Shown: positions 23,062 through 53,923 of the stretch, one piece after another
How the letters are laid out: each line of letters opens with the position of its first letter
Position numbering within the stretch: the stretch's first letter is position 1
Source of the DNA: Anaerolineae bacterium
Lineage (GTDB): Bacteria > Chloroflexota > Anaerolineae > B4-G1 > DUEL01
NCBI GenBank assembly: GCA_041082215.1
Contig: JBDOIF010000129.1
Coordinates: forward strand, 1-53,969
Reading direction: 5' to 3'
DNA length: 53,969 bases
Translations under genes and position numbers: made by a program
Notes under the pieces: model-generated
Seen by the model: the letters and a program-made list of their open reading frames with translations, nothing else
Database searches by the model: none
What the model was told of the DNA's origin: nothing

Positions 23062-23997
23062 CTATCCCTCCCGGCCGGACCGGACCATCAGCACGGCGGC
23101 CAGGATCAGGGCACCCCCCACTAATTGGATGCCGGTCAGCCGCTCGCCAAGCCACAGGGCGGCAAAGATGACCGTCAGCGGCGGTTCGATCGTCGTGATC
23201 AGGTTGGCCACGCTGGCCGGAAGGTATCGCAAACTGGCCGTGTACAGCCCATACCCCCCCACCGTTGGCCCGATGGCCAGAAAGGCCAGCACCGCCCAGC
23301 CAGAAAGGGAACTGCCCAGCCAGAACAGATGCCCCACCCGTCCGGCAACAACCTGGAACAGCAGGAGGAAAACGGAGCCAAAGGCGAATCCCCAGAAAGT
23401 AACCCCCCACGCCTCCAGGCCCCGCTTTGAGGAGGTTTTGCCCATCAGAGTATATGCGGAAAAACCCACGCCGCTGAGCAGTCCCACCCCCAGCGCCAAC
23501 GGGGCAACCCGCCAGACCGCAGGGTTGTACGCTCCCGATACAGCTATACAGCCCAGGACGCTCAGGACAACGGCCGCGATCTTGCGCAGGCCCAGCGCCT
23601 CACCCAGCAGCCCCCACCCCAGCAACGCAGTAAAGGCCGGGGCGCTGTAGGCCAGCACCGTCGCTACGGCCGCCCCATTGAGCGCAACCGAGGTGGTCCA
23701 CAGGGCATTGAACGCAGCCAGGACGAAGCCGTAGGCTAGGAGGAAGAGGATGTGAGGCCCCACCGCCGCCCAGGGGGCCCGGCGCTGACGGAGCACATAA
23801 ACCCCCACGGCCAGCGTCGCTGCGGCGAGCAGATCGCGCCAGAAGGCCAGGACAAGGGGAGGAAGCGCATAGCGAGTGCTCAGGTACCGGATCAGGACCC
23901 CGGTGCTGGCCCAGAAGGCCGTGCCCCCCAGGGCAAGCAGGTATCCCCGTGCCCCTGGCCCCGCTGCCGACCCCGGTACTCCGCGCTCTGCCTTCAC
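23062..23997 (-). CDS. EamA/DMT-family transporter
   Basis: About 10 TMs with two EamA halves (WASTG, YSAPAF, LLGE, IEP); GTGA overlap with the upstream gene. Confidence 0.9.
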   Translation of the reverse strand: MKAERGVPGSAAGPGARGYLLALGGTAFWASTGVLIRYLSTRYALPPLVLAFWRDLLAAATLAVGVYVLRQRRAPWAAVGPHILFLLAYGFVLAAFNALWTTSVALNGAAVATVLAYSAPAFTALLGWGLLGEALGLRKIAAVVLSVLGCIAVSGAYNPAVWRVAPLALGVGLLSGVGFSAYTLMGKTSSKRGLEAWGVTFWGFAFGSVFLLLFQVVAGRVGHLFWLGSSLSGWAVLAFLAIGPTVGGYGLYTASLRYLPASVANLITTIEPPLTVIFAALWLGERLTGIQLVGGALILAAVLMVRSGREG

Positions 23998-25163
23998 TTT
24001 GTCGCCACGCCGCCCAGCAGCACGCGACGGGCCGCCTCCGCCAGGACCGCCGCACCGATGGGCAGACAGCGCTCATCAACATCAAAATGGGGGCCGTGGG
24101 CCAGCCGCTCCTCCTCCCCGATCCGGCAACCCAGACCGAACATCGCCCCCGGAGCCTTCTTGCAGAAAAAGCCGAAGTCCTCCGCCCCCATGCCCTTCTC
24201 CTCCGGCGGGACGTGCTTCTCCCCCAGCAGGTCCACCGCCACCTGCCGCAGTAGTGCTGCCACACGCGCATCGTTGATCATCGGGGGGTAGCCGACCTGA
24301 ATCCGGAGCTGGTAGTCGCCGCCCAGCGCCCGCGCTACCTCAAGCGCCCGTTCGATCTCGGCGTGGATCCGCTGCTGTACCGGGGGATCCATATACCGGA
24401 TCGTCCCGCGCATCTCCACCTGCTCGGGGATCACGTTGTCGGCCTGACCGCCGTGGATGGCGCCGATGCTCACCACCGCCGGCAGCACCGGATCAATCCG
24501 CCGGGAGACGATGCCGTTGAGGGCGAGGATCACGTGCCCGGCGATGTAGATGGGGTCAACCGTCTTATGCGGCTCCGAACCGTGCCCGCCTTTCCCCAGA
24601 ATGGTGACGTAGAACGTATCCACCCCAGCGGAGGAGGGCCCTGGCTCGATCGTCACATCGCCCGTGGCAACGGATGGGTCAACGTGCAGCGCCAGCACCA
24701 TATCCACTCCCTCCATCGCACCGTCCTCGATCATCCGCGGCGCGCCGCTGACCCCCTCCTCGTCCTCCATCTCCTCCGACGGCTGGAACAGAAAACGGAC
24801 CGTCCCCGGCAGGTCCTCCCCGGCCAGAAGGGTGGCAACCCCCAGGGCGATGGCCATATGCGCGTCGTGGCCACAGGCATGCATCACCCCCGGCACCTGC
24901 GAGGCATAAGGCACGTCGTTTTCCTCCTGGACCGGCAGCGCATCCATATCGGCCCGGATCGCCACCACCGGATGACCTTCCCCCCGGTCGGCCACGACGC
25001 CGGTGCGCCCGACCCCCGTCCGAACCCGGTAGCCGAGAGAGCGGAGGATTTCCGCCACACGGGCGGCGGTCCGCACCTCCCGGAAACCCAACTCCGGATA
25101 TTGATGGAACTCCCGCCGCCAGGCGGTCATCCGGTCCTGAATGGCCCTCGCGCGGTCAAGCAT
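23994..25163 (-). CDS. M20D amidohydrolase (N-acyl-amino acid hydrolase family)
   Basis: RR.FHQYPELGF.E, RADMDALP, HACGHDAH, FQPSEE, GGHG and GAEDF. Confidence 0.92.
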   Translation of the reverse strand: MLDRARAIQDRMTAWRREFHQYPELGFREVRTAARVAEILRSLGYRVRTGVGRTGVVADRGEGHPVVAIRADMDALPVQEENDVPYASQVPGVMHACGHDAHMAIALGVATLLAGEDLPGTVRFLFQPSEEMEDEEGVSGAPRMIEDGAMEGVDMVLALHVDPSVATGDVTIEPGPSSAGVDTFYVTILGKGGHGSEPHKTVDPIYIAGHVILALNGIVSRRIDPVLPAVVSIGAIHGGQADNVIPEQVEMRGTIRYMDPPVQQRIHAEIERALEVARALGGDYQLRIQVGYPPMINDARVAALLRQVAVDLLGEKHVPPEEKGMGAEDFGFFCKKAPGAMFGLGCRIGEEERLAHGPHFDVDERCLPIGAAVLAEAARRVLLGGVATK

Positions 25164-26817
25164 CCTTCACCCCCCTGTGACGGAGCACCCGCCCTGGCAA
25201 CGCGCCGGTGTGCTCCCCTCCGTCCACGACCACCACCCCGTTGACCAGCACATAGTCTATCCCCTCCGGATGCTGATGGGGGTAGTTCTCAAAGGGATAA
25301 GCGTGGGGATAGAGGTTCGTCGCCCGGTCGCGGACGCGGTCCAGGTCGAAGATGACGAGGTCGGCCCAGGCCCCCGGCTCCAGCACCCCCCGCCCCCACA
25401 GCCGGAACCGACGGGCCGGGAAGGAGGTCATCTTGCGGACCGCCTCCTCCAGGGTCAGTACCCGCTGCTGGCGGACGTACCGTTCCAGCACGCCGGGGAA
25501 CTCGCCGTAACTGCACGGCGAGTAGGGGGGCGGGTCGTTCAGCACGCCGTAGGGCGCCAGCACCTGACCGTCGGAGCAGATCATCACCGCCGGATGGCGC
25601 AGGAGCAGCCGGATGTTCTCCTCGTCAATGTAGTCAAAGAGGCCGAAGGCGGCATCGCCGTTTTCAACGATCAGGTCGAAATAGGCGTCGAAGGGGTCCA
25701 CGCCCCGCTCCCGGGCCAGGGCCTCCACCGTCTTGCCCACCGCGGCAGGGGTGCGGGGGGCCTGGAAGACGGTGATGCGGTCCCACCGGCCGTGCTTCAA
25801 AAGCCCCACCGGCCCGAACGCCGGATGCCGGTCGGCGACGATCTCCTCCCGGATGCGGCGCCGCTGGTCGGGGTCCCGCAGCAGGGCGACGATCTCCTCG
25901 ACCGGCAGGGCATGGAGCGGCTGGGGGAGCGCGTCTATCAGGGCTGGGCCCAGGTCGGTGTGCACGTCGTTGTCCACGGTCACATCCTGCCCCCTTGCCC
26001 GCGCCTCCTCGACCAGCCCCAGCGTGGCGGTCGCATCGCAGGGAGCGCCGTATTTGGGCGCGTTGTGGGAGATGTGGACAGGCACGCCGGCCTCCCGGCC
26101 GATGTGGATCGCCTCGGCCACCGCCTCCAGCACCGTCTCCCGCTCACCCCGGATGTGGGATACGTACAGCCCGTTATACCGGGAGGCGACGCGGCAGAGG
26201 GCGACGATCTCCCCGGTGGTGGCAAAACACCCCGGCGGGTAGACCAGGCCGGTGGAAAGGCCAAAGGCGCCGGCCGACATCGCCTCCGCCAGGAGCCGCT
26301 CCATCCGGTCCTGCTCCGCATCGGTGGGCTTCCTTTCCGCAAATCCCATGACCGCGATCCGCAGGCCGCTGTGCCCGGCAAGCGACCCCACATTGATCGC
26401 CAGTCCGTCCCGCTCCAGCACGCCCAGATACTGCCCGAAAGACCGCCACTCCCACGTCACTTCGGGCTGGTCTGCCAGCGGCTCCCAGAAGCGGCGGATG
26501 TCCTCCAGATGGCCCTCGTCCACCGGCGCGGGCGACATGCCGCAGTTGCCGATGATCTCAGTGGTCACCCCCTGCCGCACGACGCTCTCCGCCCGCCGGT
26601 TGATGAGGAGGGAGAGGTCGGAATGGGTGTGGACGTCCACAAAGCCAGGGGCGACGAATCGTCCCTCCAGACGGAGCACCCGCCGGCCCCGCAGGCTCTC
26701 TGGCGGCCCGACCTCCGCCACCCGTCCGTCGGCCACCGCCACGTCCCCCCAGAACCACGGGTTGCCGCAGCCGTCGAGGATGCGGCCACCGCTCAGGACA
26801 AGCTCGTACACGCTCAT
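25156..26817 (-). CDS. N-acyl-D-amino-acid deacylase (D-aminoacylase) family amidohydrolase
   Basis: PGFVDVHTHSD, GVTTEIIGNCG, STGL.YPPG, SHIRGE, HISH, SDG and ADLVIFD. Confidence 0.9.
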   Translation of the reverse strand: MSVYELVLSGGRILDGCGNPWFWGDVAVADGRVAEVGPPESLRGRRVLRLEGRFVAPGFVDVHTHSDLSLLINRRAESVVRQGVTTEIIGNCGMSPAPVDEGHLEDIRRFWEPLADQPEVTWEWRSFGQYLGVLERDGLAINVGSLAGHSGLRIAVMGFAERKPTDAEQDRMERLLAEAMSAGAFGLSTGLVYPPGCFATTGEIVALCRVASRYNGLYVSHIRGERETVLEAVAEAIHIGREAGVPVHISHNAPKYGAPCDATATLGLVEEARARGQDVTVDNDVHTDLGPALIDALPQPLHALPVEEIVALLRDPDQRRRIREEIVADRHPAFGPVGLLKHGRWDRITVFQAPRTPAAVGKTVEALARERGVDPFDAYFDLIVENGDAAFGLFDYIDEENIRLLLRHPAVMICSDGQVLAPYGVLNDPPPYSPCSYGEFPGVLERYVRQQRVLTLEEAVRKMTSFPARRFRLWGRGVLEPGAWADLVIFDLDRVRDRATNLYPHAYPFENYPHQHPEGIDYVLVNGVVVVDGGEHTGALPGRVLRHRGVKDA

Positions 26818-28250
26818 AGGGTGACCTCCCGTTGGATAAACGCTTCGCCCCGTCGGATCAACCGGTCGTGGTCATCCGGCGGCTGAACCTCCTCCAGTAG
26901 ATGCAGGGTGTATTCCCGCAATAACTCAATGGTCTGTGGGCGCCCCTTTGCCTCCCACGTCTCCAGCCCCCAGCGGGGGAAGATGGGGCTGGAATAGTAG
27001 GCGTGGCGGTAGTGCCGGAGGGTCAGAGGGGCGGTGAGGAAGTTGCCCCCTGGCCCCACCGAGCGTACATCCTCCAGGCCGACTGACGGCCCGTCCAGAG
27101 GGAAGCCCTCGGCAAAGCGCAGGGCCTGGGCGATGATCTCGTGGGCATAGACAACGTTGGTCGGCGAAAAGGCCTTCGATCCCAGGTTGTCCCCGACAAA
27201 GGGGGCCAGACCCACCTTGCCGATGCAGGCGGTGACGTGGTTAATCCAGTAGGCCCCGGCCGCCACCAGATCGGTCCCCCATCCCGGTCCGCTCCCGGAG
27301 GTCCCTGCATGAGGGATGCCGTAGTGGGCCATCATCTCCGCGCAGGCCAGGTTCACCACGTAACTCTGCGGGTCGTAGAAACTCTCCATCCCCCGCATAT
27401 CGAAAAAGGCGGGGAGGCTGCCGAGGATCACCGGCGTCCCCTCGCGGATCAACTGGGCCAGCGTCAGCCCGGCGAGGAGCTCGGCGTTCATCAGGACGAA
27501 CATCCCGGCGGCGGTGATGGGGACCGTGGCCCCAGCCATCCCATAATTGGAGTAGATGATGGGCAGACCCCGTTCGATGGCGGCGAACATCTTTTCGGCG
27601 GTGCCCCGGTTGACCACCAGCGGGCTGACCGGATTGAAGTAGGGGACGACAAACGGCCGCGATGAGAGGTCGCCGCAGAGGGCCTCCAGGAGATCGAGTG
27701 CGCGGGGGAAGAGGCGGTCCTCCGAGATCAGGATGACCAGCGGCTTGGTAGTGTTGGCCACCATCTCCAGCACGGCGTACAGATCGGCCACCTGGGGCGG
27801 CAGATCGCGCAGGATGCCGATGGTGGAGATCGCGTCATAATAGGGGAGGTTATGGCCCAAACGGACCATCGCTGCCATATGCTGGCGGGTAAAGGGGACC
27901 ACCCGGTCGTCGACGGGTTCCTGATAGTAGAGCGCTGTCACGCCGATGCCGAAGCGGGTCCGGTCAGCTCCCAGCCGGAAGGCCGGCTCGCCCCGCCGGT
28001 TATACACCTCGACGACGGAGGGCGCGGCCCGGATGGCCCACTCCACCAGCTCCGGTGGGAAGCGGACGCGGTCCCCCTCAACCCGCTCCTGCCCCACAGC
28101 GTGGCGCAGGACCTCAAGGGCCCGTGGCGATTCGACCCGCACGCCAACCTCATCCAGGAGCCGCAGGGTGTGGGCGTGGACGTCGGTGACCTGCGCCCTG
28201 GTGAGGACCTGCAGGCGGGGCCGGACGGTCTGCTCTCCCTCGCCGCTCAT
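26814..28250 (-). CDS. MttB-superfamily methyltransferase, non-pyrrolysine (paralog 1, most divergent)
   Basis: VHAHTLRLLDEVGV, NPVSPL, GATVPIT.AG...NAELLAG and VGPGGNFL; uninterrupted 478-aa frame. Confidence 0.85.
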   Translation of the reverse strand: MSGEGEQTVRPRLQVLTRAQVTDVHAHTLRLLDEVGVRVESPRALEVLRHAVGQERVEGDRVRFPPELVEWAIRAAPSVVEVYNRRGEPAFRLGADRTRFGIGVTALYYQEPVDDRVVPFTRQHMAAMVRLGHNLPYYDAISTIGILRDLPPQVADLYAVLEMVANTTKPLVILISEDRLFPRALDLLEALCGDLSSRPFVVPYFNPVSPLVVNRGTAEKMFAAIERGLPIIYSNYGMAGATVPITAAGMFVLMNAELLAGLTLAQLIREGTPVILGSLPAFFDMRGMESFYDPQSYVVNLACAEMMAHYGIPHAGTSGSGPGWGTDLVAAGAYWINHVTACIGKVGLAPFVGDNLGSKAFSPTNVVYAHEIIAQALRFAEGFPLDGPSVGLEDVRSVGPGGNFLTAPLTLRHYRHAYYSSPIFPRWGLETWEAKGRPQTIELLREYTLHLLEEVQPPDDHDRLIRRGEAFIQREVTL

Positions 28251-29536
28251 CTTCCCTCCGCCCGACGACGCTGCCGACGCGGCAGGTCCGCTGGCTCGAT
28301 GCTCACCACCTCCTGCGCAAACACCCGCGTCGGCCCGATCAGCGGCTGGTCCAGCCCGCGCGCCTTCCGCTCCTCACAGATCCGGCAGTTGGGCGGGCAC
28401 TCGAACCGGTAGTCGGCCGGCTCAACGTAGCGGGAGATGACCCCCTCGTAGTTGCGGAAGACGACGACGCGGTCGCCCTGGGAGATCATATAACGGGGGT
28501 GGACCGGCGTCTTTCCCCCGCCGCCGGGCAGGTCAACCATATACTCCGGCACGGCGAAGCCGGTGGTATGGCCGGAGAGGTGTTCTATAATCTCGATACC
28601 GCGGGCGACCGAGGTGCGGAAGTGGGAGATGCCCTGGGAGAGGTCGCACTGGTAGAGCCGGTAGGGGCGGACCCGGTTCTCGATCAGCCGCTGGAAAAGC
28701 TCTTTCAGGATGAAGGGGCAATCGTTGACGCCGCGCAGGAGGACGGTCTGGTTGCCCAGGACGAATCCGGCATCCGCCAGCATCGCCAGCGCCTGACGGG
28801 CCCGGGGCGTCAGTTCCCTGGGGTGGTTGAAGTGGGTGTTGATCCAGACCGGCTGGTATTTCTTGAGCATCGAGATCAGCTCGTCGGTGACCCGCTGGGG
28901 AAGGACCACGGGGATCGCCGTGCCGTAGCGGACGATCTCGACGTGGGGGATTTCGTGGAGCCTGGCGACGATGTACTCCAGCCGCTCGGTGGAGAGGGTG
29001 AAGGGGTCGCCGCCGCTGATCAGCACGTCGCGCACCCCGCGGGTTTCGCGGATGTAGGCGATGGCTTCGTCAATCTCCTTCTGGGGGCGGGGACGGTCCG
29101 TCTCGCCGGCCCAGCGCCGCCGCGTGCAGTGGCGGCAATACATCGAGCACTGATCGGTCACCAGCAGCAGGACCCGGTCGGGGTAGCGGTGGGTGAGGCC
29201 GGGGACCGGGGAGTCGGTGTCCTCGTGGAGGGGGTCCCTCATATCCTCAGGCGCGATGACCTTCTCGCGGAGGGTGGGCACAGCCCGCTGGCGGATCGGG
29301 CAGTAGGGGTCGTCGGGGTCCATCAGGCTGGCGTAGTAGGGGGTGATCGCCATCCGCAGCGTCCCCAGCGACTCCTCGATCAGGGCCTTCTCTTCTTCGG
29401 TCAGCGGGATGACCCGGCTCAGCTCCTCCACCGTCGTGATCCGGTTGGCCAACTGCCAGTGCCAGTCCTCCCACTGCTCCCAGGGCACATCCTGCCACGG
29501 GGGCGGTGGTGTACGTCGGTTCTCTGAAACGCTCAT
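28247..29536 (-). CDS. kamA: Lysine 2,3-aminomutase (radical SAM, PLP)
   Basis: DPLHEDTDSPVPGLTHRYPDRVL, CSMYCRHCTRRR, SGGDP, NTHFNHP, NQTVLLRGVND, QCDLS, PGGGGK (PLP Lys) and C-terminal CPPNCRIC; GGAGG RBS. Confidence 0.92.
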   Translation of the reverse strand: MSVSENRRTPPPPWQDVPWEQWEDWHWQLANRITTVEELSRVIPLTEEEKALIEESLGTLRMAITPYYASLMDPDDPYCPIRQRAVPTLREKVIAPEDMRDPLHEDTDSPVPGLTHRYPDRVLLLVTDQCSMYCRHCTRRRWAGETDRPRPQKEIDEAIAYIRETRGVRDVLISGGDPFTLSTERLEYIVARLHEIPHVEIVRYGTAIPVVLPQRVTDELISMLKKYQPVWINTHFNHPRELTPRARQALAMLADAGFVLGNQTVLLRGVNDCPFILKELFQRLIENRVRPYRLYQCDLSQGISHFRTSVARGIEIIEHLSGHTTGFAVPEYMVDLPGGGGKTPVHPRYMISQGDRVVVFRNYEGVISRYVEPADYRFECPPNCRICEERKARGLDQPLIGPTRVFAQEVVSIEPADLPRRQRRRAEGR

Positions 29537-29555
29537 CCCGGCCTCCGTAGGGGTT

Positions 29556-29613
29556 ACCACAAAGGCGCAAAGACACGAAGGAGATGTTTTTCGTGTCTTC
29601 GTGCCTTTATGGT
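29556..29613. repeat. Imperfect 24-bp inverted repeat built from 9-mer units
   Basis: ACCACAAAGGCGCAAAGACACGAA (29556-29579) versus TTCGTGTCTTCGTGCCTTTATGGT (29590-29613). Confidence 0.75.
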
Positions 29614-29615: not shown

Positions 29616-31073
29616 CTAAACCAAAGACGGCAGAGCGTCCATCCCGGCCTGGCGGGCGACGCGCTCGACCACCTCGCGCAGGGCTTTTTCCTTCTCCGGG
29701 GCCATCGGTGGCCGTTCGTAGGCGGCCAGCAGTTCGTTCACCCGTGCCTTTGCCCGCTGGAAGGTGTCCAGACTGCCCTGCTGATGCCAGGTTCGGATGG
29801 AGCCGCGATCGAGCACCGGCGAGGGAAGGTACTGCTCCTGGGAGAACAGGCGGCGGGTGAGCTTCTGTTTGAGGAAATCGCCGCGGAAAGCGAAGTCCTG
29901 GAAAAACTCGATCGCCAGCGTCCCGGTGGGGGTTCCGACCCCGGCCAGCAGCCGTTTGGCCATCCCGATTGCCTCGGCGTCAACGACCAGCTTCTCCGCG
30001 CTCTGGCAGGCCAGGAAGTCGAGCATACCGGCGCCGGAGATCATATTGATCCCGGCCAGGGCGCCGATGAGGGCGGTGACGCCGCTCTCCAGTCCAGCCT
30101 GATAGTCCACCACCTTGGCGTCGGTCGCGCCCAGGTAGGTGTGGGTGGGCAGGCCCAGGCGCTTCCCCACCTGGGCGTAGGCGGCGTCAATCATCGCCGT
30201 CTCGACTGCCCCCATAGGCGTCGTCCCCTGGCGCATGTCGAAAATGGCCGGGGCGCCACCCCAGACGATCGGCGCACCGGGCCCGGCCAACTGATGGATC
30301 GTGATGCCGCTGAGGCATTCGGCCGCATGCTGGACCACCGAGCCGATCAGCGTCACCGGGGCAGCCGCCCCCGCCAGCGGCATGGAGACGATCTGGGCGG
30401 GGACCTTCGCCCGCGCCAGGTCAATCAGGTTCTGCGCCCCGAACTCGCTCCAGATGAGCGGCGGGGAGGGGCAGACGTCGAAGATCGCCAGAGGCCTCTC
30501 CGCCAGCCCCTCCCGCCCGCCGGTGAAGACCGCCAGCATGTCGAACATGACCTGCGTGGTGCGCGTGGAGAAAGCCCCGGTGACGATCGGCTTTCGGGAA
30601 TAGAGGAGGACCAGGTAGAGCCGGTAGAGGTCGCCGATCTCTTTGGGGACCTCGCTGCAGATGACCGCCGTGGACTGGGCATCGTACTGCGGCAACATCT
30701 CGGCGACCTTCACCAGCCGGATCAGGTCCGCCCCCGTCGAGGGCCGATGCTCCAGCGCCTCGGGGTCCAGGATGTGCACGCCGGAGGAGCCGGGGTCGAA
30801 GTGGACGTCGTCACCGCCGTAGTGGACGGCGGGGCTTCCATCCCGGTCGTACAGCCAGAACTCACGGGGAACCGTCTCCAGCGCCCGCCGGACCACCGGT
30901 TCCGGGATATGGGCGACCCTGGCTTCTTCGTCCACCCGGGCGCCGGCATCCGCCAGCAGCCGCAGGGCCTCAGCCGACTGGACCTTCACCCCCGGCTCCA
31001 TCAGCAGGCGAAATGCCTCTGCCAGAACGCGCTCGACCAGTTCATCTGGAAGGAGAGAGATCTTGGGTTGCAT
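29616..31073 (-). CDS. MttB-superfamily methyltransferase, non-pyrrolysine (paralog 2)
   Basis: PSPPL, AGAAAPVTLIG, FDMRQG...GAVE, TDAKVVDYQAGLES and GINMISGAGML. Confidence 0.92.
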   Translation of the reverse strand: MQPKISLLPDELVERVLAEAFRLLMEPGVKVQSAEALRLLADAGARVDEEARVAHIPEPVVRRALETVPREFWLYDRDGSPAVHYGGDDVHFDPGSSGVHILDPEALEHRPSTGADLIRLVKVAEMLPQYDAQSTAVICSEVPKEIGDLYRLYLVLLYSRKPIVTGAFSTRTTQVMFDMLAVFTGGREGLAERPLAIFDVCPSPPLIWSEFGAQNLIDLARAKVPAQIVSMPLAGAAAPVTLIGSVVQHAAECLSGITIHQLAGPGAPIVWGGAPAIFDMRQGTTPMGAVETAMIDAAYAQVGKRLGLPTHTYLGATDAKVVDYQAGLESGVTALIGALAGINMISGAGMLDFLACQSAEKLVVDAEAIGMAKRLLAGVGTPTGTLAIEFFQDFAFRGDFLKQKLTRRLFSQEQYLPSPVLDRGSIRTWHQQGSLDTFQRAKARVNELLAAYERPPMAPEKEKALREVVERVARQAGMDALPSLV

Positions 31074-31097
31074 CCGTTCTCCCCGTTTCTTAATGCC

Positions 31098-31129
31098 GTA
31101 GCGCAAGATTTATCTTGCGCTTGCGCCAC
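31098..31129. repeat. REP-like doublet, family A, internally deleted copy
   Basis: GTAG-CGCAAGATTTATCTTGCGC-TTGCG-CCAC. Confidence 0.8.
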
Positions 31130-33251: not shown

Positions 33252-33296
33252 CTTGTCCTCCTGCAAGGCTCTCCTGGTCATAGCACAGCCGTCTGG

Positions 33297-44020: not shown

Positions 44021-44031
44021 GGGAAGCGACG

Positions 44032-44982: not shown

Positions 44983-44992
44983 GAGGCCCGAC

Positions 44993-46966: not shown

Positions 46967-47073
46967 GTAGCGCAAGATTTATCTTGCGCAAGCGCAAAAT
47001 AAATTTAGCGCATTTGTTGAATTTGTAGCGCAAGATTTATCTTGCACAAGCGCAAAATAAATTTTTGCGCCAC
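46967..47073. repeat. Two tandem REP-like doublets, family A (58-bp period)
   Basis: GTAGCGCAAGATTTATCTTGC(G/A)CAAGCGCAAAATAAATTT...GCGC starting at 46967 and at 47025; ends in CCAC. Confidence 0.88.
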
Positions 47074-47098
47074 ATCTTTTTTGTTTAAGGAGGAGGTC

Positions 47099-48274
47099 AT
47101 GTCCTACACCTACGCCGTCCTCGGAGCCGGCCGCCAGGGGACCGCTGCCGCCTACGATATGGCCCGCTGGGGAGAGGCCCGGCGGGTCGTCCTGGCCGAC
47201 CTGGACCCCGAGGCCGCCCACCGCGCCGCCGGGCGGGTCAACCGGATGCTTGGCACAACAGTGGCCGAACCGGCCCGGGTGGATGTGACCGACCTGAAAG
47301 CGGTGGAGCGGCTGCTCACCGGGGTGGACGCCTGCCTGAGCGCCGTGCCCTATACCTTCAACCTGGGCATCACCCAGGCCGCTATCCGCGCCCACTGCAG
47401 CCTGTGCGACCTGGGCGGCAACACCGGCATCGTCCGCCAGCAGCACGCCTGCGACGAACAGGCCCGCGCCGCCGGGGTGAGCGTCATCCCCGACTGCGGT
47501 CAGGTCCCCGGCCTTGGCTCCAGCCTCATCGTCTACGCGATGGAACTGCTGGACGAAGCCACCGACGTCTTTATGTGGGACGGCGGGGTCCCCCAGAACC
47601 CCCGCCCTCCCTTCAACTATCTGCTCACCTTCAACATCGCCGGGCTGACCAACGAGTATGCTGAACCGGCCATCTTCCTCCGCGATGGGAAGATCGTCGA
47701 GGTGGAGCCGATGACCGAACTGGAGACCGTCGAGTTCCCCGAGCCGATTGGCACGCTGGAGGCTTTCATCGCTGGTGGGGGAACGAGCACGATGCCGTGG
47801 ACTTTTGAGGGACGGCTGCGGACATTGCAGAACAAGACGCTCCGCCATCCCGGCCACTTCGCCCAACTGCGCGCCTTCTACGACCTGGGCCTGTGGGACC
47901 TGAAGCCGATCCGGGTCGGCGACACGGAGATCGTGCCGCGGGAGGTCTTCCACGCCCTCTTCGAGCCGAAGGTCACCTTCCCCGGAGACAAAGATACCGT
48001 CATCGTCCGCGTGAAGGCGGTGGGGAAGAAGGACGGTCGGGACGCGGAGGTGGTGGTCGAGCTGATAGACCACTTCGACGACGAGACCGGCTTCACGGCG
48101 ATGGAACGCTGCACCGGCTGGAGTGCGGCGGTCGTCGCCGAGATGATGGCCCGCGGGCAGACGCCGCGCGGCGCGGGAGGGGTGGAGCGCTTCGTCCCGG
48201 CCCGCCCCTTTGTCGAGGAGCTCCGCCGCCGTGGGCTGAGTGTGACCGAGCGGGTGGAGACCAAACTGATCTGA
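47099..48274 (+). CDS. Saccharopine dehydrogenase-like / lysine 6-dehydrogenase family oxidoreductase
   Basis: Rossmann GAGRQG, SAVPY, CDLGG, PDCGQVPG, GLTNEY, KTLRHPGH and TAMERCTG; GGAGGAGG RBS. Confidence 0.85.
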   Translation: MSYTYAVLGAGRQGTAAAYDMARWGEARRVVLADLDPEAAHRAAGRVNRMLGTTVAEPARVDVTDLKAVERLLTGVDACLSAVPYTFNLGITQAAIRAHCSLCDLGGNTGIVRQQHACDEQARAAGVSVIPDCGQVPGLGSSLIVYAMELLDEATDVFMWDGGVPQNPRPPFNYLLTFNIAGLTNEYAEPAIFLRDGKIVEVEPMTELETVEFPEPIGTLEAFIAGGGTSTMPWTFEGRLRTLQNKTLRHPGHFAQLRAFYDLGLWDLKPIRVGDTEIVPREVFHALFEPKVTFPGDKDTVIVRVKAVGKKDGRDAEVVVELIDHFDDETGFTAMERCTGWSAAVVAEMMARGQTPRGAGGVERFVPARPFVEELRRRGLSVTERVETKLI

Positions 48275-48331: not shown

Positions 48332-50164
48332 CTAGGCCAGCCCCAGTTCCGCCAGCTTCTCCCGGGTGGGGACTCCGTTCTCGTCCCACCCCCGCAGCCG
48401 GTAGTATTCCGGCAGCATCGTATCCAGCTCCACCACGTGCCCCTTCGCCGCACCCTCGGGCATCGGCTCCCCCAGCATCCGCGGCGGCAGGGTGTCGTCG
48501 GCGCGGGTGAAGCCGGCCCGGATCAGGAACATCCGCTCCAGGTTGTACACCCGCTCCCCCGCCTTAAGCAGCGTCTCCTCATCATACCCGGCGCCCGTTG
48601 CATATTCCATCATCCGGGAGATCCGCACCGGCTCAAGCCGATAGGTCGGCTCGAAGAGGTGGCGGATGCTCAGGAAGACGCATAAACCGGCCGCGTCCAC
48701 AATGGTAAAGATGTCCTCAAAGTACTTCACGTAGGCCGGCTTGTCCTCAATCGCCAGCGGGTCGAGTCGCTTGGGGACGCCGAAAACCTCCATGTAGGCG
48801 ATGTCGCCCGCCATGTGGGAAGCGCCGATGTTGGAGGTGGCGTAGAGGAGTCCCATCCCCTTGGCCCCGCGGGGGTCGTAGCCGGGGAACTCCTGCTTTT
48901 TGGCAACTATCGCATACTCAGGATGGCCGTACCGTTCGGCCAGGCGGTAGCTCCCTTCGGCAATCAGGTCGCCGAACCCTTCCCGCAGGCCCGCGCGGCG
49001 GACCATCTCGATCATCGCGTCGGCATCACCGAACCGAAGCGGCATACCGATGTCGCTCTCAGGGAGGATGCCCCGCTCATAAAGCTCCATCGCGCAGGCG
49101 ATGGTAACGCCAGTGGAGATGGTGTCCAGCCCCAGTTGGTTGCAGAGGTAGTTGGCATAGGTGATCGCCGCCAGATTGCCCACCCCACATGCGCTACCGA
49201 CGGAGGCGATGGTCTCATACTCCGGCCCCTCCCCCTCCCCCACGTAGGGTGGCTCGTTGACCCGCGTGAGCCGGCCGCAGGCGATGGGACAGCCATAGCA
49301 GGCTTTAGGGCGGATAAGGTATTTACTTCGCAGAGCTCGCCCGGAGATGTCCTCGGCGTGTGCAAAGACCCCCGTCTGGAAGTTGCGGGTGGGGAGGATG
49401 CCGACCTCGTTGGTCACTGGCGGCACGTAGGCGGTGCCGTAGACCCGGAGGGACGACCCTGCCTCCACCGCCTTTTTCACCTCCTCGACCACCTCCAGGC
49501 AGAGGGCTTTCATCTCTTCGGGATGGGCCAGGGCGGGGGCCCGGGTGCCGCGCACGGCCACCGCCTTGAGGTTCTTCGACCCCATTACCGCCCCCACGCC
49601 GGAACGGGCCGCCGCGCGGTGCTTGTCGTTCATAATTGCGGCGATCCGCGCCAATCGCTCCCCTGCCGGCCCGATGCAGGCCACCCGCGCGTGCGTCTCC
49701 GTCTCCGCCCGCACCGCGTCCTCCGTCTCAAAGACGTCCTTCCCCCAGAGGTGATCCGCCGGCCGCAGTTCCGCCTTGCCGTCGCGCACCCACAGATAGA
49801 CCGGCCGCTCCGCCCTTCCCTCGAAGATGAACAGGTCCAAGCCCGTGCGTTTCATCTCCGTGGGGAAGAAGCCGCCGGAGTTGGAGCAGGAGAGCGCCCC
49901 CGTCAACGGCGACCTGGTCACCACCATATACCGGTTACCGGTCGGGGCAGGGGTTGCTGTGAGTGGTCCCGTGCCAAAGATCAGTTTGTTCTCCGGCGAA
50001 AGAGGCTCAACCCTGGGGTCTATCTCGTCATAGAGATAGCGGATGGCCCATCCGCGCCCGCCGATGAAATCGCGCGCCATCTGTGGATCCACCGACTCAG
50101 TCCGGATCTCCCCTGTGGTCAGGTTCACCCGCAGGACCTTGCCGTGCCAGCCATACATTCTCAC
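48332..50164 (-). CDS. aor: Aldehyde:ferredoxin oxidoreductase (tungstopterin AOR family)
   Basis: GWHGKVLRVNL, SPLTG, IGPAGE, R.G.GAVMGSKNLKA, CYGCPIACGR, GPEYET, GLDTISTG, GLC and YY.LRGWD. Confidence 0.93.
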   Translation of the reverse strand: MRMYGWHGKVLRVNLTTGEIRTESVDPQMARDFIGGRGWAIRYLYDEIDPRVEPLSPENKLIFGTGPLTATPAPTGNRYMVVTRSPLTGALSCSNSGGFFPTEMKRTGLDLFIFEGRAERPVYLWVRDGKAELRPADHLWGKDVFETEDAVRAETETHARVACIGPAGERLARIAAIMNDKHRAAARSGVGAVMGSKNLKAVAVRGTRAPALAHPEEMKALCLEVVEEVKKAVEAGSSLRVYGTAYVPPVTNEVGILPTRNFQTGVFAHAEDISGRALRSKYLIRPKACYGCPIACGRLTRVNEPPYVGEGEGPEYETIASVGSACGVGNLAAITYANYLCNQLGLDTISTGVTIACAMELYERGILPESDIGMPLRFGDADAMIEMVRRAGLREGFGDLIAEGSYRLAERYGHPEYAIVAKKQEFPGYDPRGAKGMGLLYATSNIGASHMAGDIAYMEVFGVPKRLDPLAIEDKPAYVKYFEDIFTIVDAAGLCVFLSIRHLFEPTYRLEPVRISRMMEYATGAGYDEETLLKAGERVYNLERMFLIRAGFTRADDTLPPRMLGEPMPEGAAKGHVVELDTMLPEYYRLRGWDENGVPTREKLAELGLA

Positions 50165-50209: not shown

Positions 50210-50214
50210 GTTTG

Positions 50215-50454
50215 TCAGCCGCCGGCGATGGCGGGGAAGAGGCAGACGACGTCCCCTTCCCTGAGAACCTGGCCGGGCTGGGGGCCGCGGCCGTTGACCA
50301 GGACGACGCTGGCATCACCGCCGGGCACCGGCAGCGTCGCCACCAGTTCGTCCACCGTGGTCCCGGGGGTCACCTCCACCTCGTAGGCGGAACCCTCTGC
50401 CCCCTCCGGCAGGTACTTGCTGTAGGTCGCCAGCAACTTGACCGCTACCCTCAC
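50215..50454 (-). CDS. MoaD/ThiS ubiquitin-like sulfur carrier
   Basis: 79 aa; VLVNG...LREGD...FPAIAGG with C-terminal GG; GTGA overlap; adjacent to aor. Confidence 0.88.
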   Translation of the reverse strand: MRVAVKLLATYSKYLPEGAEGSAYEVEVTPGTTVDELVATLPVPGGDASVVLVNGRGPQPGQVLREGDVVCLFPAIAGG

Positions 50455-52247
50455 TGCCCGCCCTCCAGCGCCTCGGCCAGGAAGGAAATCCGCCGCCGCT
50501 CCGCGTCCAGGATGTTGTCCGTTTTGAGAAATTCATGCCCTTCATCCGGGTACAGGGCCAGGTCGCATCGCTTCCCCGCCGCCCTGAGAGCCTCACAGGC
50601 CTGGACCGACTCGCTGGCCGGGCAGCGGGGGTCATGCGCCCCGGCGATCAACTGCACCGCCGCCTGCACCCGGTCGAGGAAGAAGTAAGGCGACCGCTCG
50701 TAATACAGCTCCCGGTCCCGCTCCGGATGGCCGAAGTTCTCCAGGTCCCAGTGCTGCAGGTCTTCCCTTGAGTTGGCGTGGCCGGTGAACCAGTTGAGGA
50801 AGGGGACGACCGCCGACCCGGCCACCCACTGCTGTGGGAAGCGGGTCAGGCAGACCATGGTCAGGTAGCCGCCGTAGCTGCGGCCAGTGACGGCGATGCG
50901 CGAGGGATCGGCCAGCCCTCTGCGGATCAGGTAGTCCGCGCCGGCGGCCACGTCGTCGGCATCCGCCCCGCCCAGGTCGAACCGGTTGGCCAGTTGCCAT
51001 TCCCGGCCATAGCCGATGGACCCCCTGTAGTTGGGGGCCAGGACGACCCAGCCGCGGCTGACCATATGCTGCACCACCGGGTCCCAAGTGACCCGGCTGA
51101 TCCAGTTGGGGCCGCCGTGGATGAGGAGCACCGCCGGGGCGGGTCCGGCGACCCCCGGCGGGCGGTAGAGAAGAGCAGGTACCATCCGTCCGTCCGGGGC
51201 AGGGTAATGGACAAGCTCGGGAGCCACCAGTGGAGCGTCCCGTAGCTCCGGGGGGAGGGAGTGGGTCAGCCGCGCCAGCGCCCCATCCCGCAGGTCCAGC
51301 GACCACAGGTCGGCTGGGTCGTGAGGGCTGTCGAAGACAAACAGGAGCCGCGCGCCGTCCGGCGTGAAGGAGGGCCGGCTGTGGATGCCCGGGCCGACCC
51401 GGTAGACTGCCTCTGTCCCATTCTCCAGGTCCAGCACCGAAAGGGCCGCCGTCGGCCCCTCGTTGAGGACGCAGGCCAGCCGTCGGCCATCCGGCGCCCA
51501 GGCCGGACCTTCCCGGTCTGCCCGTCCTCCGGCAACCCATCGCGCCTGGCCGGAGGCCACGTCGTAGATGCCGAGGGCGAGGTGGTCGCCCTGGGGCGCG
51601 GAGAAGGCCAGGGCGGAGCCGTCGGGCGACCAGGCCACGTCGCGGGCGCGGAGGGGCGAACCTCCGGCGTCCGTCAGCAGGCGGTGTTCCCCTGTTGCTG
51701 GGGAGACCAGGAAAGCATCGGTGTCCTGCCCCTCCGTCTCGGCGATCACGGCCAGCCACGCCCCATCGGGCGACCAGGTCACGATGTAGTCGTGATAGGG
51801 GAGGGAGAGGAGGGGACAGGCCGCCCCGGTCTGGACGTCCATCATATAGGTATGGAACCGGCCCGAGGGGTTGGCGGCAAAGCCGATGAACCGGCCGTCG
51901 GGCGACCAGGCATATGCTGGCTGAATGGCGTAAGGCGTGTCGGGGGTCCGGTTGATGTGGAGGCCCCGTTCCGCGTCGCCGAGCCAGATGTCGTACTCCT
52001 CGCCCCCGTCCAGGTCCACCAGGTAGGCCAGACGGCGGCCGTCGGGGGCCCAGCGGGGGGCCCGCTTCGCCCCGGGGCCATCGGTGAAACGGGCGGGTGC
52101 GGCTGGAGCGGCCAGCGGCAGGACATACACCTCCCAGCCGCCCGTGGCGTTGTGGGAAAAGGCCACCGCCCGTCCATCCGGGGCAAGGTCAAACCCGTAG
52201 TCGGGGTCCACCGCCGGAACACGAAGGAGCGTCTCCAGGTCCAACAC
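50451..52247 (-). CDS. S9-family peptidase (acylaminoacyl/dipeptidyl peptidase-like) with PD40 propeller
   Basis: W(S/A)PDG repeats, IHGGP, PNYRGS.GYG, GRSYGG (catalytic Ser), DPRC (Asp) and DEGH (His); likely GTG start after GGAGG. Confidence 0.9.
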   Translation of the reverse strand: MLDLETLLRVPAVDPDYGFDLAPDGRAVAFSHNATGGWEVYVLPLAAPAAPARFTDGPGAKRAPRWAPDGRRLAYLVDLDGGEEYDIWLGDAERGLHINRTPDTPYAIQPAYAWSPDGRFIGFAANPSGRFHTYMMDVQTGAACPLLSLPYHDYIVTWSPDGAWLAVIAETEGQDTDAFLVSPATGEHRLLTDAGGSPLRARDVAWSPDGSALAFSAPQGDHLALGIYDVASGQARWVAGGRADREGPAWAPDGRRLACVLNEGPTAALSVLDLENGTEAVYRVGPGIHSRPSFTPDGARLLFVFDSPHDPADLWSLDLRDGALARLTHSLPPELRDAPLVAPELVHYPAPDGRMVPALLYRPPGVAGPAPAVLLIHGGPNWISRVTWDPVVQHMVSRGWVVLAPNYRGSIGYGREWQLANRFDLGGADADDVAAGADYLIRRGLADPSRIAVTGRSYGGYLTMVCLTRFPQQWVAGSAVVPFLNWFTGHANSREDLQHWDLENFGHPERDRELYYERSPYFFLDRVQAAVQLIAGAHDPRCPASESVQACEALRAAGKRCDLALYPDEGHEFLKTDNILDAERRRISFLAEALEGGQ

Positions 52248-52281
52248 AGGCCCTCCCCACTGCCTGGCGGCTGTCGGCCGC

Positions 52282-53061
52282 TCAGACCAGCCGGCCGCTC
52301 TCGATGATCCGACCCAGGAACTGGAGGGTACGGGGGTCACGCGGCTCGGTGAAAATCTGGTCGGGGGGGCCTTCCTCGACGACGATCCCCTCTTCCATGT
52401 AGATGACCCGATCTGCTACCTCATGGGCGAACCCCATCTCATGGGTGACGATAATCATCGTCGTCCCTTCCCGGGCCAGCTCCTTCATCACGGAAAGCAC
52501 CTCGCCGATCAGTTCGGGGTCGAGGGCCGACGTGGGCTCGTCGAAGAGCATCACCTGGGGCTCCATCGCCAGCGCCCGGGCGATGGCGGCCCGCTGTTTC
52601 TGCCCGCCAGAAAGGCGGATGGGATGGACGTCCCGCTTATCCTCCAGCCCGACCCAGCGCAGGAGTTCCTCGGCTTTGGCGATAGCCTCCTCACGGGGGA
52701 TCCCTTTGACCAGTATAGGCGCTTCAATGATGTTCTCCAGGACGGTCATGTGGGGGAAGAGATTGAACTCCTGGAAGACCATGCCGGTCTTCAGCCGCAG
52801 GTCGCGCACGCGGCCGCGACACTCGGGCGTGATGCACCCCTCGCCGGCCTCCACAGCGACGCCGTCTATTTCCACATGGCCGCTGGTTGGCTCTTCGAGC
52901 AGGTTGATGCAGCGCAGCAGAGTGGATTTCCCCGACCCGCTGCGGCCGATGACGACGACGACTTCGGAGGGATAGACCTCCAGTGAGATCCCCCGCAGCA
53001 CGTGCAGGAGGCCGAACCATTTATGGAGGTTCTGTACGCGGACGATGGGCTTACCGTTCAT
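52282..53061 (-). CDS. Polar amino acid ABC transporter ATPase
   Basis: [39 protein letters not shown] and THEMGFA. Confidence 0.95.
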
Positions 53062-53923
53062 AGGCGTGTGCCATCCGCCGTTCCAACCGGCTTTGCAGCC
53101 AGGAGGAGATGATGGTCAGAATCCAGTACAGAGTTGCAGCGACCAGGAACATTTCGATGAACTTGCTGTCCTTACGGGCGAAGCGGTTGGCCCGGAAGGT
53201 GATCTCCCACACCCCCATCACCGAGACGAGGGCGGAGTCCTTTTGCATGGCGATGAACTGATTGCCGATATCGGGGATAATGACACGGATGGCCTGGGGC
53301 AGGATGATGCGGCGGAGCATCTGGGTGCGGGTCATCCCCAGAGCGGCTGCTGCTTCGTGCTGTCCGTGGCCCACGGATTGCAGGCCGGCGCGGAAGATTT
53401 CGGTCATATAGGCGCCGTAGTTCAGGCTGAGGGCCAGGATACCCGATTGGATCTCGCTCAATGTGAAGAGCCGCCCAAGCTCGGGGTGGCCCAGGCGGAT
53501 CAGTTGTTGCCCGATCTGGGGCAATCCGAGGTAAATGAAATAAATCTGGATGAGAAGAGGTGTTCCACGGATCACGGAAATGTAGAAGCCGGAGATCCCC
53601 TGGGCGATGGGGTTGCGCGACATACGGCCCAGCGCGCCGAAGAGGGCGAGCACCGAGGCGATGGCGATCGAGGCCATGGAGACGCCAATAGTAGTGAGCA
53701 CGCCCTGAAGGACAAAGCCGAAGTGCTGAAGGATATATCCGGGCTCGAAGCGAAGCTGCAGGAGGCCGCCGGTCAACAGAGCAATGAGGACGAACCAGAC
53801 AATACCGACTTTCACCGTCTCAATCAGCCGCTGCCGACGGGCCCGTCGGACCAGTTGCAGGCCTACAGAAAGGTCGGGATCGGGCGGGGGAGGCGATCCC
53901 GTCAGAGTCTTTTCGGCAGCCAT
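53051..53923 (-). CDS. Polar amino acid ABC transporter permease
   Basis: [33 protein letters not shown] and KDSAL; GGAGG RBS. Confidence 0.95.

Follow-up and report, generated by a model that had tools for sequence, protein, structure and literature searches.

The stretch of DNA analysed here (the window) is the 53,969-nucleotide (nt) contig JBDOIF010000129.1 of an Anaerolineae bacterium of the phylum Chloroflexota (assembly GCA_041082215.1), a whole contig of a 3.53-Mb genome that is assembled into 174 contigs and is 96% complete. Between positions 23062 and 53923 it carries a gene island in which kamA, the gene for lysine 2,3-aminomutase, lies among genes for MttB-family methyltransferases without pyrrolysine (non-Pyl MttBs). 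The link between kamA and MttB genes is real, conserved and recurrent, and the pairing points to an undescribed anaerobic use of methylated lysine. All 26 genes of an initial annotation of this DNA were recovered at the same coordinates with Pfam and NCBIfam; they form two divergent operons and one convergent operon, with many overlapping genes. The gene list and the operons thus stood, with the correction that the Lrp/AsnC gene, which had been placed as a separate unit between the divergent operons, heads the right operon on the plus strand.

The left operon (minus strand) begins with a gene for a corrinoid (B12-binding) protein (32601..33329; Pfam B12-binding and B12-binding_2; TIGR02370, 245 bits against a cut-off of 215). 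A single base separates it from the gene of MttB_b (31148..32599; Pfam MTTB, 290 bits), after which come those of MttB_c (29616..31106; 303 bits), KamA (28247..29560; a radical S-adenosylmethionine (SAM)/pyridoxal phosphate (PLP) enzyme; TIGR03820, 581 bits, cut-off 525) and MttB_d (26814..28250; 202 bits), the most divergent of the non-Pyl MttB paralogues. Two amidase genes follow, one for an Amidohydro_3 protein (25156..26817; Pfam) that resembles N-acyl-D-amino-acid deacylases, its best matches in the Protein Data Bank (PDB) being an N-acyl-D-glutamate deacylase and a D-aminoacylase (3gip/1m7j, E 1e-68), the other for an M20 amidohydrolase of the aminoacylase/deacylase type (23994..25163; Pfam Peptidase_M20 and M20_dimer; TIGR01891, 379 bits, cut-off 154). 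The gene of an EamA-family (DMT) transporter is the last of the operon (23062..23997; Pfam EamA, 129 bits). From kamA onwards all neighbouring genes share 4 or 8 nt: the position of kamA between mttB genes with an ATGA overlap, claimed in the initial annotation, was read directly in the sequence, where the kamA stop and the MttB_d start share these letters, and the coordinates give 4 nt for MttB_d/Amidohydro_3 and M20/EamA, and 8 nt for Amidohydro_3/M20.

An A+T-rich control region of 89 nt, read in the sequence (33330..33418), lies between the corrinoid gene and the Lrp/AsnC-family regulator gene (33419..33919; Pfam HTH_AsnC-type and AsnC_trans_reg) that opens the right operon (plus strand). 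Behind the regulator stand AT1, a class-III omega-aminotransferase of the gamma-aminobutyrate (GABA)/ornithine aminotransferase type (33926..35266; PRK05769, 625 bits, cut-off 552), subunit A of a coenzyme A (CoA)-transferase of the glutaconate CoA-transferase type (35312..36214; Pfam CoA_trans; GctA, PDB 1POI, E 1.2e-50), its subunit B (36233..37018; CoA_trans, 124 bits), a thiolase (acetyl-CoA C-acyltransferase; 37092..38279; Pfam Thiolase_N/C; TIGR01930, 467 bits, cut-off 241) and AT2, a YodT-like class-III aminotransferase of the omega/beta-amine:pyruvate type (38306..39631, its ATG read at 38306; PDB 3i4j, E 2e-97). The operon continues with MttB_e, also a non-Pyl paralogue (39647..41059; Pfam MTTB, 260 bits), with the five genes of an Opp/Dpp-type ABC importer (41178..46956; SBP_bac_5 binding protein, two permeases, two ATPases; Pfam; overlaps of 4 nt at OppB/OppC and OppD/OppF) and with a saccharopine-dehydrogenase-fold gene (47042..48274; Pfam Sacchrp_dh_NADP/_C). 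The product of the latter is lysine-6-dehydrogenase-like, its best PDB match being PH1688 (3abi, E 1.5e-27), which we take to be a lysine 6-dehydrogenase.

The convergent operon (minus strand) contains genes for the permease, near the contig end (53051..53923), and the ATPase (52282..53061) of a polar-amino-acid ABC transporter (both Pfam and NCBIfam), an S9 prolyl-oligopeptidase-family peptidase with a beta-propeller (50451..52340; Pfam Peptidase_S9 and PD40), a small ThiS/MoaD-family protein whose translation ends in GG (50215..50454; Pfam ThiS, 32.5 bits, cut-off 22.5) and a tungsten/molybdopterin aldehyde:ferredoxin oxidoreductase (AOR; 48332..50164; Pfam AFOR_N, 277 bits, and AFOR_C, 492 bits).

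KamA of the window aligns to PDB 2A5H with an E-value of 2.6e-164. It keeps the CxxxCxxC motif (as CSMYCRHC) and the equivalents of R134, D293, D330 and K337, which we take to be the residues binding the lysine carboxylate and epsilon-ammonium groups and the PLP lysine. The NCBIfam models for glutamate and arginine aminomutases score below their own cut-offs on this protein. A comparison of 21 rows of its clade (18 distinct genomes) with 69 sequences of ordinary KamA showed five columns, and no more, to be fixed differently; none of them falls on a presumed substrate-contact residue, and the comparison gave no sign of altered specificity. The sequence evidence would therefore favour free lysine as the substrate of KamA. 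A dependence of KamA on the corrinoid protein was considered and rejected, as KamA is a SAM/PLP enzyme. Pyrrolysine biosynthesis was likewise rejected as a role of the island; KamA is not PylB-like, and the MttB genes have no amber codon.

CoA-transferase subunit A reaches only about 5e-6 with acetate/3-oxoacid CoA-transferases, compared with 1.2e-50 for 1POI, and the two subunits have the sizes of GctAB-type proteins (about 300 and 260 residues), subunit B having been checked by Pfam and NCBIfam only. Subunit B obtains 44 bits with the pcaJ/scoB model TIGR02428 (cut-off 244); the thiolase aligns end to end with the PcaF equivalog TIGR02430 at 401 bits (cut-off 597). The best PDB match of AT1 is the archaeal 7vno (E 6e-124), presumably an ornithine delta-aminotransferase, and GABA aminotransferases come next; for AT2, omega-transaminases follow 3i4j. 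The same structure, 3I4J, is the closest one listed for YodT of Bacillus subtilis, which is expressed with kamA and, like KamA, is given as a SigE-dependent protein of unknown role (PMC6522883).

The initial annotation had assumed that the genes of the classical lysine fermentation are missing, and for two of them this is borne out at the scale of the genome. KamD (PF09043) had no match in the window genome (G000) or in the relatives G014 and G037, the positive control, a Paraclostridium genome (G845), giving 895 bits; Kce/BKACE (PF05853) had none in the window genome, Kdd and Kal not being searched. With a completeness of 96%, absence of KamD and Kce is likely, not proven. AblB (TIGR03827) had no match in the genome either, and the island is devoid of any GNAT. 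Thus neither the classical nor the osmolyte fate of beta-lysine is represented by its marker genes.

Four of the seven MttB genes of the genome lie in the window, and none of the seven has an internal stop or an in-frame amber codon. The four window proteins match PF06253 over their full length (202–303 bits, cut-off 25; about 470 of the 500 profile positions), and are mutually only 24–31% identical. The pyrrolysine position is occupied by Ala in MttB_b and MttB_c and by Ser in MttB_d and MttB_e. MttB_b has its best structural relative in MtgB (9yce/2qne, E 8e-78); MttB_c aligns best to the pyrrolysine enzyme. In MtgB, glycine betaine is contacted by Y97, R312, H348 and F356, and R312 is reported to be conserved in MtcB, MtpB, MthB and MtyB, that is, in all characterised acidic-betaine members (PMC13080624). 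The equivalents of the four residues are C/S/L/S in MttB_b, S/H/S/L in MttB_c, T/A/P/S in MttB_d and G/N/S/G in MttB_e, the first G of the last being a gap in a second alignment. Consequently, the Arg of the R312 column, whose alignment is fixed by a conserved Pro two positions earlier, is replaced by S, H, A and N in MttB_b, c, d and e, respectively. The substitutions are invariant within the b group and within the c group (14 rows from 11 distinct genomes each). Judged by these residues, the window MttBs would not belong to the known betaine enzymes.

The three remaining MttB genes of the genome occupy other contexts, one glycine-betaine-like, one phosphocholine-like and one near genes for a GNAT and an MFS transporter. 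At the first (L082, C161:38500-52257; locus 4879-13690), genes for a DeoR regulator, an MttB, a metallophosphoesterase-like protein and an amino-acid permease adjoin one for an 812-residue fused FAD oxidase/aminomethyltransferase of the dimethylglycine-oxidase type, which makes this the likeliest glycine-betaine locus of the genome. The second (L083, C155:64000-77026; locus 7302-13001) encodes an APH-family kinase, an MttB, a corrinoid protein, a PHP-domain protein and a HAD hydrolase, a set resembling the kinase-dependent phosphocholine (MthB) route of Eubacterium limosum. Relatives from this family and order also possess MttB genes scoring above 500 bits (for example G009:C48:7692-9101), one of them with a single in-frame TAG, which suggests that a true pyrrolysine-type trimethylamine methyltransferase occurs in this order of Chloroflexota.

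A destination for methyl groups is predicted from genes elsewhere in the genome, namely a CODH/ACS (carbon monoxide dehydrogenase/acetyl-CoA synthase) cluster that comprises both subunits of the corrinoid iron–sulfur protein, the activase RACo, an AcsE-like pterin-binding gene and FolD. Another RACo gene and two further pterin-binding genes are found apart from this cluster, which gives three Pterin_bind and two RACo genes in total, all outside the window. On this gene content, the bacterium has a methyl sink in the form of a predicted Wood–Ljungdahl pathway.

The conservation of the island was followed in 41 genomes of the order, its own included, which fall into families designated f1 and f2 and genera g1–g5 and g10. 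KamA of at least 73% identity is encoded in 20 of them, and ten others have only a paralogue type of 51–55%. Eighteen f1 genomes possess the orthologue; four of these (G013, G017, G022, G024) are too fragmented to be judged, and in 13 of the other 14 (G000, G001, G002, G003, G011, G012, G014, G016, G018, G019, G020, G021 and G023) an MttB gene lies within 5 kb of kamA on the same contig. The co-occurrence of mttB and kamA in relatives, on which the initial annotation had staked its proposal, therefore holds in this family, and it extends to a second phylum (see below). MttB_b is the MttB most constantly linked to kamA. Its orthologues (77–93% identity) are present in 19 of the 41 genomes, in 18 of them together with KamA and in one (G004) without it; KamA occurs without MttB_b in two (G024, G037), and the remaining 20 encode neither. 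KamA genes 83–88% identical to that of the window are found in public records labelled Anaerolineae, Thermoflexales, Thermoflexia or Chloroflexota bacterium. A search of 400 further Chloroflexota genomes gave no match of the KamA clade at E 1e-170; the clade is thus confined to the order, and the phylum-wide search supplied no independent lineages.

More telling than the counts is the fact that gene order varies while the neighbourhood persists, the arrangement being kept, with rearrangements, in five genera of the family. In g2, the series AT2-thiolase-CoA-transferase B-CoA-transferase A-AT1-Lrp diverges from corrinoid protein-MttB_b-MttB_c-KamA-EamA, with ABC-MoaD-AOR adjoining; EamA directly follows kamA there (L007, L089, L091), MttB_d and the amidases are missing from the island, and the S9 peptidase is not found at that place. 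Lrp orthologues (73–93% identical) hold the same position in g2 and g3. In G003 (g4), the order is corrinoid protein-MttB_b-KamA-Pterin_bind-MoaD-AOR, so that kamA stands between the genes of a first methyltransferase (MT1) and a pterin-binding second methyltransferase (MT2). G002 (g3) has kamA on the opposite strand, preceded by Lrp and by two genes of saccharopine-pathway type, one with an AlaDh_PNT domain and one for a saccharopine dehydrogenase. In g5, only AT1, still divergent, and corrinoid protein-MttB_b-MttB_c-KamA stay together; the CoA-transferase and thiolase genes (90% identical to those of the window), AT2 (73–75%), AOR (83–84%) and MttB_e (72–74%) are at other loci. Of the catabolic genes, AT1 alone has kept its place next to the corrinoid-MttB-kamA set in this genus, which would suit an enzyme acting immediately after KamA. 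MttB_c orthologues adjoin MttB_b in g1, g2, g3 and g5, and AOR and MoaD accompany pathway genes in G001, G011, G003 and G037, preceded in G001 and G011 by polar-amino-acid ABC orthologues (84–86%). Such an arrangement is more than chance.

Other parts of the island are less firmly attached. MttB_d has one orthologue among the relatives (G002, 64%), flanked by Amidohydro_3, C45/AAT hydrolase and M20 genes; the M20 orthologue (70%) adjoins it (L099), and Amidohydro_3 orthologues in this genome adjoin MttB_c as well as MttB_d. MttB_e orthologues (66–74%) occur at other loci in g3, g4, g5 and g10, in G002 beside a creatininase-family gene and Opp genes, and an Opp set lies near the island in G003. 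Since MttB_d with the amidases and MttB_e with Opp are found elsewhere in relatives, the island is modular rather than one fixed pathway. Within g5, a GHL10 glycosyl-hydrolase-like gene (about 460–480 residues, Pfam) sits between MttB_c and kamA at L004 and L008 and not at L001; the same insertion can be inferred at L093 and L094 from a gap of about 1.6–2.3 kb between the two genes. At a further locus of this genus (L006:5000-10758, G015:C225), kamA is preceded by genes for a GHL10 glycosidase-like protein, a 560-residue protein with a B12-binding domain and a member of the octopine/nopaline dehydrogenase family.

The lysine part of the island also exists by itself. G037, of family f2, has a single plus-strand operon composed of two proline-racemase-family genes, MoaD, AOR, an M20-like gene, AT1, CoA-transferase A and B, KamA, thiolase and AT2, and no MttB or corrinoid gene was found in the 20 kb examined there. 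The identities to the window proteins are 58% (AT1), 77% and 78% (CoA-transferase A and B), 73% (KamA), 68% (thiolase) and 62% (AT2). This argues that KamA, the aminotransferases, the CoA-transferase, the thiolase and AOR form a lysine/beta-lysine pathway in themselves, to which the MttBs were added as a front end. The tandem proline-racemase-family genes (L086:638-2826, G037:C13) may use an intermediate in its cyclic imine or pyrrolidine form.

Further occurrences were found in Bacillota. A sample of 401 genomes of this phylum was searched with MttB_b, and 24 had a match at E <=1e-90, most of them pyrrolysine-type genes with one TAG and 35–38% identity. Flanks were taken for 12 of the 13 stop-free rows, a 38% row of G636 being left out. 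Among the four closest relatives of MttB_b (49–54% identity), three have kamA within 2.5 kb. The first of these loci (L133) reads NhaC-family transporter, sigma-54 activator, corrinoid protein, c-type MttB (44%), Pterin_bind MT2, KamA (56%), b-type MttB (53%) and corrinoid protein. The second (L134) comprises b-type MttB, KamA, GNAT, sigma-54 activator, a second KamA and an NhaC-family transporter, and the third (L135) BKACE, thiolase, sigma-54 activator, a LysO-family protein, GNAT, KamA and b-type MttB. The fourth (L136) consists of an MFS transporter, a corrinoid protein, b-type MttB and c-type MttB, with no kamA within about 9 kb. MT2 is part of the operon in the Bacillota genome G603, kamA lying between the MT1 and MT2 genes. 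The b-type MttBs of both phyla have common local motifs at five mapped positions, including a Lys/Arg just after the F356 equivalent. In the next MttB group (43–45% identity to MttB_b), kamA was present at none of eight loci, and MttB was absent from the flanks of all 70 kamA loci examined outside Chloroflexota; the pairing is therefore no general property of kamA. Two of the eight loci of that MttB group (L137:7683-11994 of G531 and L140:7618-11891 of G572) have an NhaC-family transporter gene, an MttB gene (44% to MttB_b) and, immediately behind it, a saccharopine-dehydrogenase-fold gene 58% identical to that at 47042-48274 of the window, with a sigma-54 activator and two amidohydrolases nearby. 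Here again an MttB is paired with a lysine-type enzyme, this time in the absence of kamA.

Taken with the genetic context, the enzyme families allow a pathway to be proposed, and the interpretation given in the initial annotation is upheld in part. We hold with middling confidence that the MttBs demethylate N-epsilon-methyl-lysine and that the resulting lysine passes via beta-lysine to CoA esters. In this scheme MttB_b, MttB_c and probably MttB_e, together with the corrinoid protein, would act on N-epsilon-methylated lysine, so that KamA would receive plain lysine. The methyl groups would pass from the corrinoid protein to a pterin-binding MT2, encoded elsewhere in this genome and within the operon in relatives, and as methyl-tetrahydrofolate into the Wood–Ljungdahl pathway. 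KamA, whose identity as an enzyme is clear, would convert L-lysine to beta-lysine. AT1 would take off the epsilon-amino group; because the amino groups of beta-lysine are spaced as in ornithine, an ornithine/GABA-type enzyme could yield 3-aminoadipate semialdehyde. AOR would oxidise the semialdehyde to 3-aminoadipate and reduce ferredoxin, which could be used in the Wood–Ljungdahl pathway. AT2 would then remove the beta-amino group, from the free acid or its CoA ester, giving 3-oxoadipate, and the glutaconate-type CoA-transferase and the thiolase would produce succinyl-CoA and acetyl-CoA. The side modules (MttB_d with the two amidases, the Opp importer, the lysine-dehydrogenase-like protein and the S9 peptidase) may widen the intake to acylated, peptide-bound and N-alkylated lysines. 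We put the odds at about even that the island as a whole works as a set of modules with which an acetyl-CoA-pathway bacterium of the Chloroflexota uses lysine and modified lysines anaerobically.

The placement of the MttBs before KamA is suggested by the ordinary character of KamA, by the MttB-free core of G037 and by the GNATs following kamA in Bacillota, which imply a free epsilon-amine at that stage. The 3-aminoadipate route is preferred to one through GABA because kamA and AT1 remain together in g5, the CoA-transferase belongs to the glutaconate type and the epsilon-amine needs no protection. In most g5 genomes the MttB set consists of b, c and e only; one might think of three successive demethylations, for which the number is no proof. 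The bolder proposal, that the pyrrolysine-free MttB_b, MttB_c and MttB_e strip all three methyls from trimethyl-lysine before a KamDE-independent fermentation via 3-aminoadipate and 3-oxoadipyl-CoA, seems to us rather doubtful. If true, tertiary and secondary amines would be demethylated by enzymes other than those with pyrrolysine, to which this chemistry is confined in present knowledge, and the methyls would feed acetyl-CoA synthesis.

Several observations weigh against the demethylation of methyl-lysine ahead of a 3-aminoadipate pathway. Neither MT2 nor a RACo/RamA activase is encoded in the window. The single judgeable f1 genome without the link, G015 (g5), has no MttB within 9 kb on either side of kamA on a 20.4-kb contig (L006), and its MttB_b is on another contig; together with G037, this indicates that the kamA-MttB link is not obligatory. 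The genomes compared are kin, so that the family counts overstate independence, and the cross-phylum support consists of three Bacillota loci only. The GNATs beside kamA at such loci point to an N-acetyl-beta-lysine route there, and the island has no acetyltransferase. The scores of thiolase and CoA-transferase fall short of the equivalog cut-offs for PcaF and PcaJ, no paper linking 3-aminoadipate with beta-lysine or 3-oxoadipate and no described metabolism of it were found, and the preference over the GABA route is modest, since the same enzymes fit another order of steps. The characterised non-Pyl MttBs take a single methyl from small quaternary amines, and for demethylation of secondary or tertiary N-methyl-lysine without pyrrolysine no precedent is reported (PMC13080624).

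Three other explanations deserve consideration. The island may merely bring together two activities without a common substrate, the core being a lysine pathway and the MttBs demethylating unrelated methylamines or betaines, both joined by a fermentation tied to the Wood–Ljungdahl pathway and by a regulator. The MttB-free core of G037, the separate contigs of kamA and MttB_b in G015, the other loci of MttB_d and MttB_e in relatives and the lack of MT2 and activase in the island all agree with this, as does the range of known substrates, which for characterised non-Pyl MttBs comprises small betaines or phosphocholine. Yet kamA has a b-type MttB as its neighbour in two phyla whose gene orders differ, kamA even standing between MT1 and MT2 in G003 and G603, and the pairing was seen at none of the eight neighbouring-clade loci and none of the 70 ordinary kamA loci. 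Moreover, the carboxylate-binding Arg of the known betaine enzymes is absent, separate MttB loci in betaine-like contexts exist in the same genome, and other lysine-type genes adjoin related MttBs (the dehydrogenase homologue of L137 and L140, the LysO-family gene of L135, and G002). We regard mere co-location as a minority possibility that has to be taken seriously.

The order of events could also be reversed, as in one of the two routes of the initial annotation: the methyls would protect the epsilon-nitrogen, KamA would isomerise methyl-lysine, AT2 would take the beta-amino group, the CoA-transferase and thiolase would split off acetyl-CoA, and the MttBs would convert the remaining gamma-butyrobetaine or methylamino-butyrate to GABA, leading by way of AT1 and AOR to succinate. 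There is chemical sense in this: 6-amino-3-oxohexanoate in free form would be expected to cyclise, which a quaternary nitrogen precludes. The good scores of AT1 with GABA aminotransferases and the likeness of AT2 to YodT agree with it. A gamma-butyrobetaine MttB, MtyB, exists (PMC8604678), but the window MttBs have no Arg of the kind conserved in MtyB and its kin (PMC13080624). What favours the other route of the initial annotation, with demethylation first, is that KamA keeps both Asp residues pairing with a free epsilon-ammonium, only five conserved columns being different, and that the CoA-transferase is of the dicarboxylate (glutaconate) type. The occurrence of the same enzymes in G037 without linked MttB and the free epsilon-amine implied by the Bacillota GNATs also speak against the reversed order, which we consider improbable. 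Finally, KamA might not be catabolic at all and supply beta-lysine either for the compatible solute N-epsilon-acetyl-beta-lysine or for some modification, or return imported beta-lysine to lysine, in an osmolyte cluster with betaine demethylases. The acetylated solute is made by kamA with a GNAT gene in Bacillus and methanogens (PMC9049628); GNATs stand beside kamA at two Bacillota loci, and the island has two deacylases. This explanation is very improbable in our view: the genome has no AblB-type GNAT and the island none, kamA of G037 is within a transaminase/CoA-transferase/thiolase operon, and L135 joins GNAT and kamA with a catabolic BKACE and a thiolase.

The methyl-transfer part of the island can be set beside known systems. 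It shares with MtgB/MtgC/MtgA and RamA of Desulfitobacterium hafniense, and with MtpB, MtcB, MtyB and MthB of E. limosum, a non-Pyl MT1 beside its cognate corrinoid protein, the presence in the genome of MT2, activase and a folate/acetyl-CoA pathway, and several paralogous MT1 per corrinoid protein. It differs from MtgB in that the window MttBs keep none of the four glycine-betaine residues, and from MtcB, MtpB, MthB and MtyB, by comparison with their published description, in lacking the R312-type Arg; MT2 and activase, moreover, are outside the island. For no characterised MttB system does the searched literature describe MT1 genes that alternate with kamA, amidase genes and a catabolic operon for amino acids, as those of the window do.

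With the classical lysine fermentation of clostridia and fusobacteria (KamA, KamDE, Kdd, Kce, Kal), the island has an orthologue-grade KamA in common, and a thiolase and a CoA-transferase are present; the latter is, however, of the glutaconate and not the acetoacetate type, KamD and Kce were not found, and two aminotransferases and AOR replace the B12 aminomutase, the dehydrogenase and the ammonia lyase. The last two proposed steps are like those of the 3-oxoadipate branch (PcaIJ/CatIJ and PcaF), in function only.

The nearest relative of the island in logic appears to be the N6-acetyl-beta-lysine route of Pseudomonas B4, reportedly studied in the Barker laboratory, together with the kamA operon of B. 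subtilis, whose composition we take to be yodT-yodS-yodR-yodQ-yodP-kamA. As in the yod operon, kamA is combined with a 3I4J-type class-III aminotransferase, a two-subunit CoA-transferase and an M20 deacylase, and an additional transaminase acting on the omega-amine is plausible, as are GABA- or succinate-type end products. The island lacks the beta-lysine acetyltransferase of that route, has another CoA-transferase subtype, adds a thiolase and AOR, and is anaerobic and corrinoid-linked. The Bacillota loci L134 and L135 (GNAT-kamA-MttB, with BKACE in L135) look closer to it than the window does. The products of yodP and kamA are reported to make N-epsilon-acetyl-beta-lysine (PMC9049628).

No paper treating MttB with trimethyl-lysine, or in a relevant way with an aminomutase, was found in the searched literature, which excludes subscription papers. 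The top 15 of 457 listed papers on methyl-lysine contain no MttB, and those on beta-lysine pathways yielded only work on the Kat acyl-CoA transaminase besides unrelated topics. The MttB-free core operon of G037, the family-wide kamA-MttB link and its recurrence in a second phylum are new. The decay of methylated proteins releases methyl-lysine, and carnitine and trimethylamine-type metabolites have trimethyl-lysine as a precursor; we know of no described oxygen-independent route by which trimethyl-lysine loses its methyl groups. To our knowledge, most members of the MttB superfamily have no known substrate. An MttB clade beside kamA in two phyla provides a concrete and cheap substrate hypothesis, the methyl-lysines, in a large superfamily for which missing predictive features are the main obstacle as the field sees it (PMC13080624). 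The core operon in turn predicts a beta-lysine fermentation without the B12-dependent KamDE, via 3-aminoadipate, an intermediate of no described pathway.

In public sequence data, six DNA runs labelled hot springs metagenome (two studies) contain 70–99% of the sampled words of the left operon, and one of them may be the source of the assembly. One contig from a DNA run lacks one base at window position 39638, in the 15-nt spacer between AT2 and MttB_e, which is ordinary strain variation. A single metatranscriptome run labelled hot springs yielded contigs of 208–358 nt with 0–3 mismatches to the island, carry-over of DNA not being controlled in it. The contigs fall on M20, Amidohydro_3/MttB_d, MttB_c, AT1, CoA-transferase B, thiolase and AT2, and carry-over may account for them. 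Some depth is found in 27 of 30 bins; none of the contigs reaches across from one gene to the next by 31 letters. We take these matches as a hint and not as evidence of expression or co-transcription.

The part of the window before 22959 has no relation to the island. It contains cell-surface polysaccharide genes, TruD and a DsrE/DsrMK-like set, the latter including a DsrMK/HdrDE-like trio on the minus strand that consists of DsrE/DrsE_2 (22039-22959), a nitrate-reductase-gamma-like gene (20984-21703) and a CCG/4Fe-4S gene (19721-20974).

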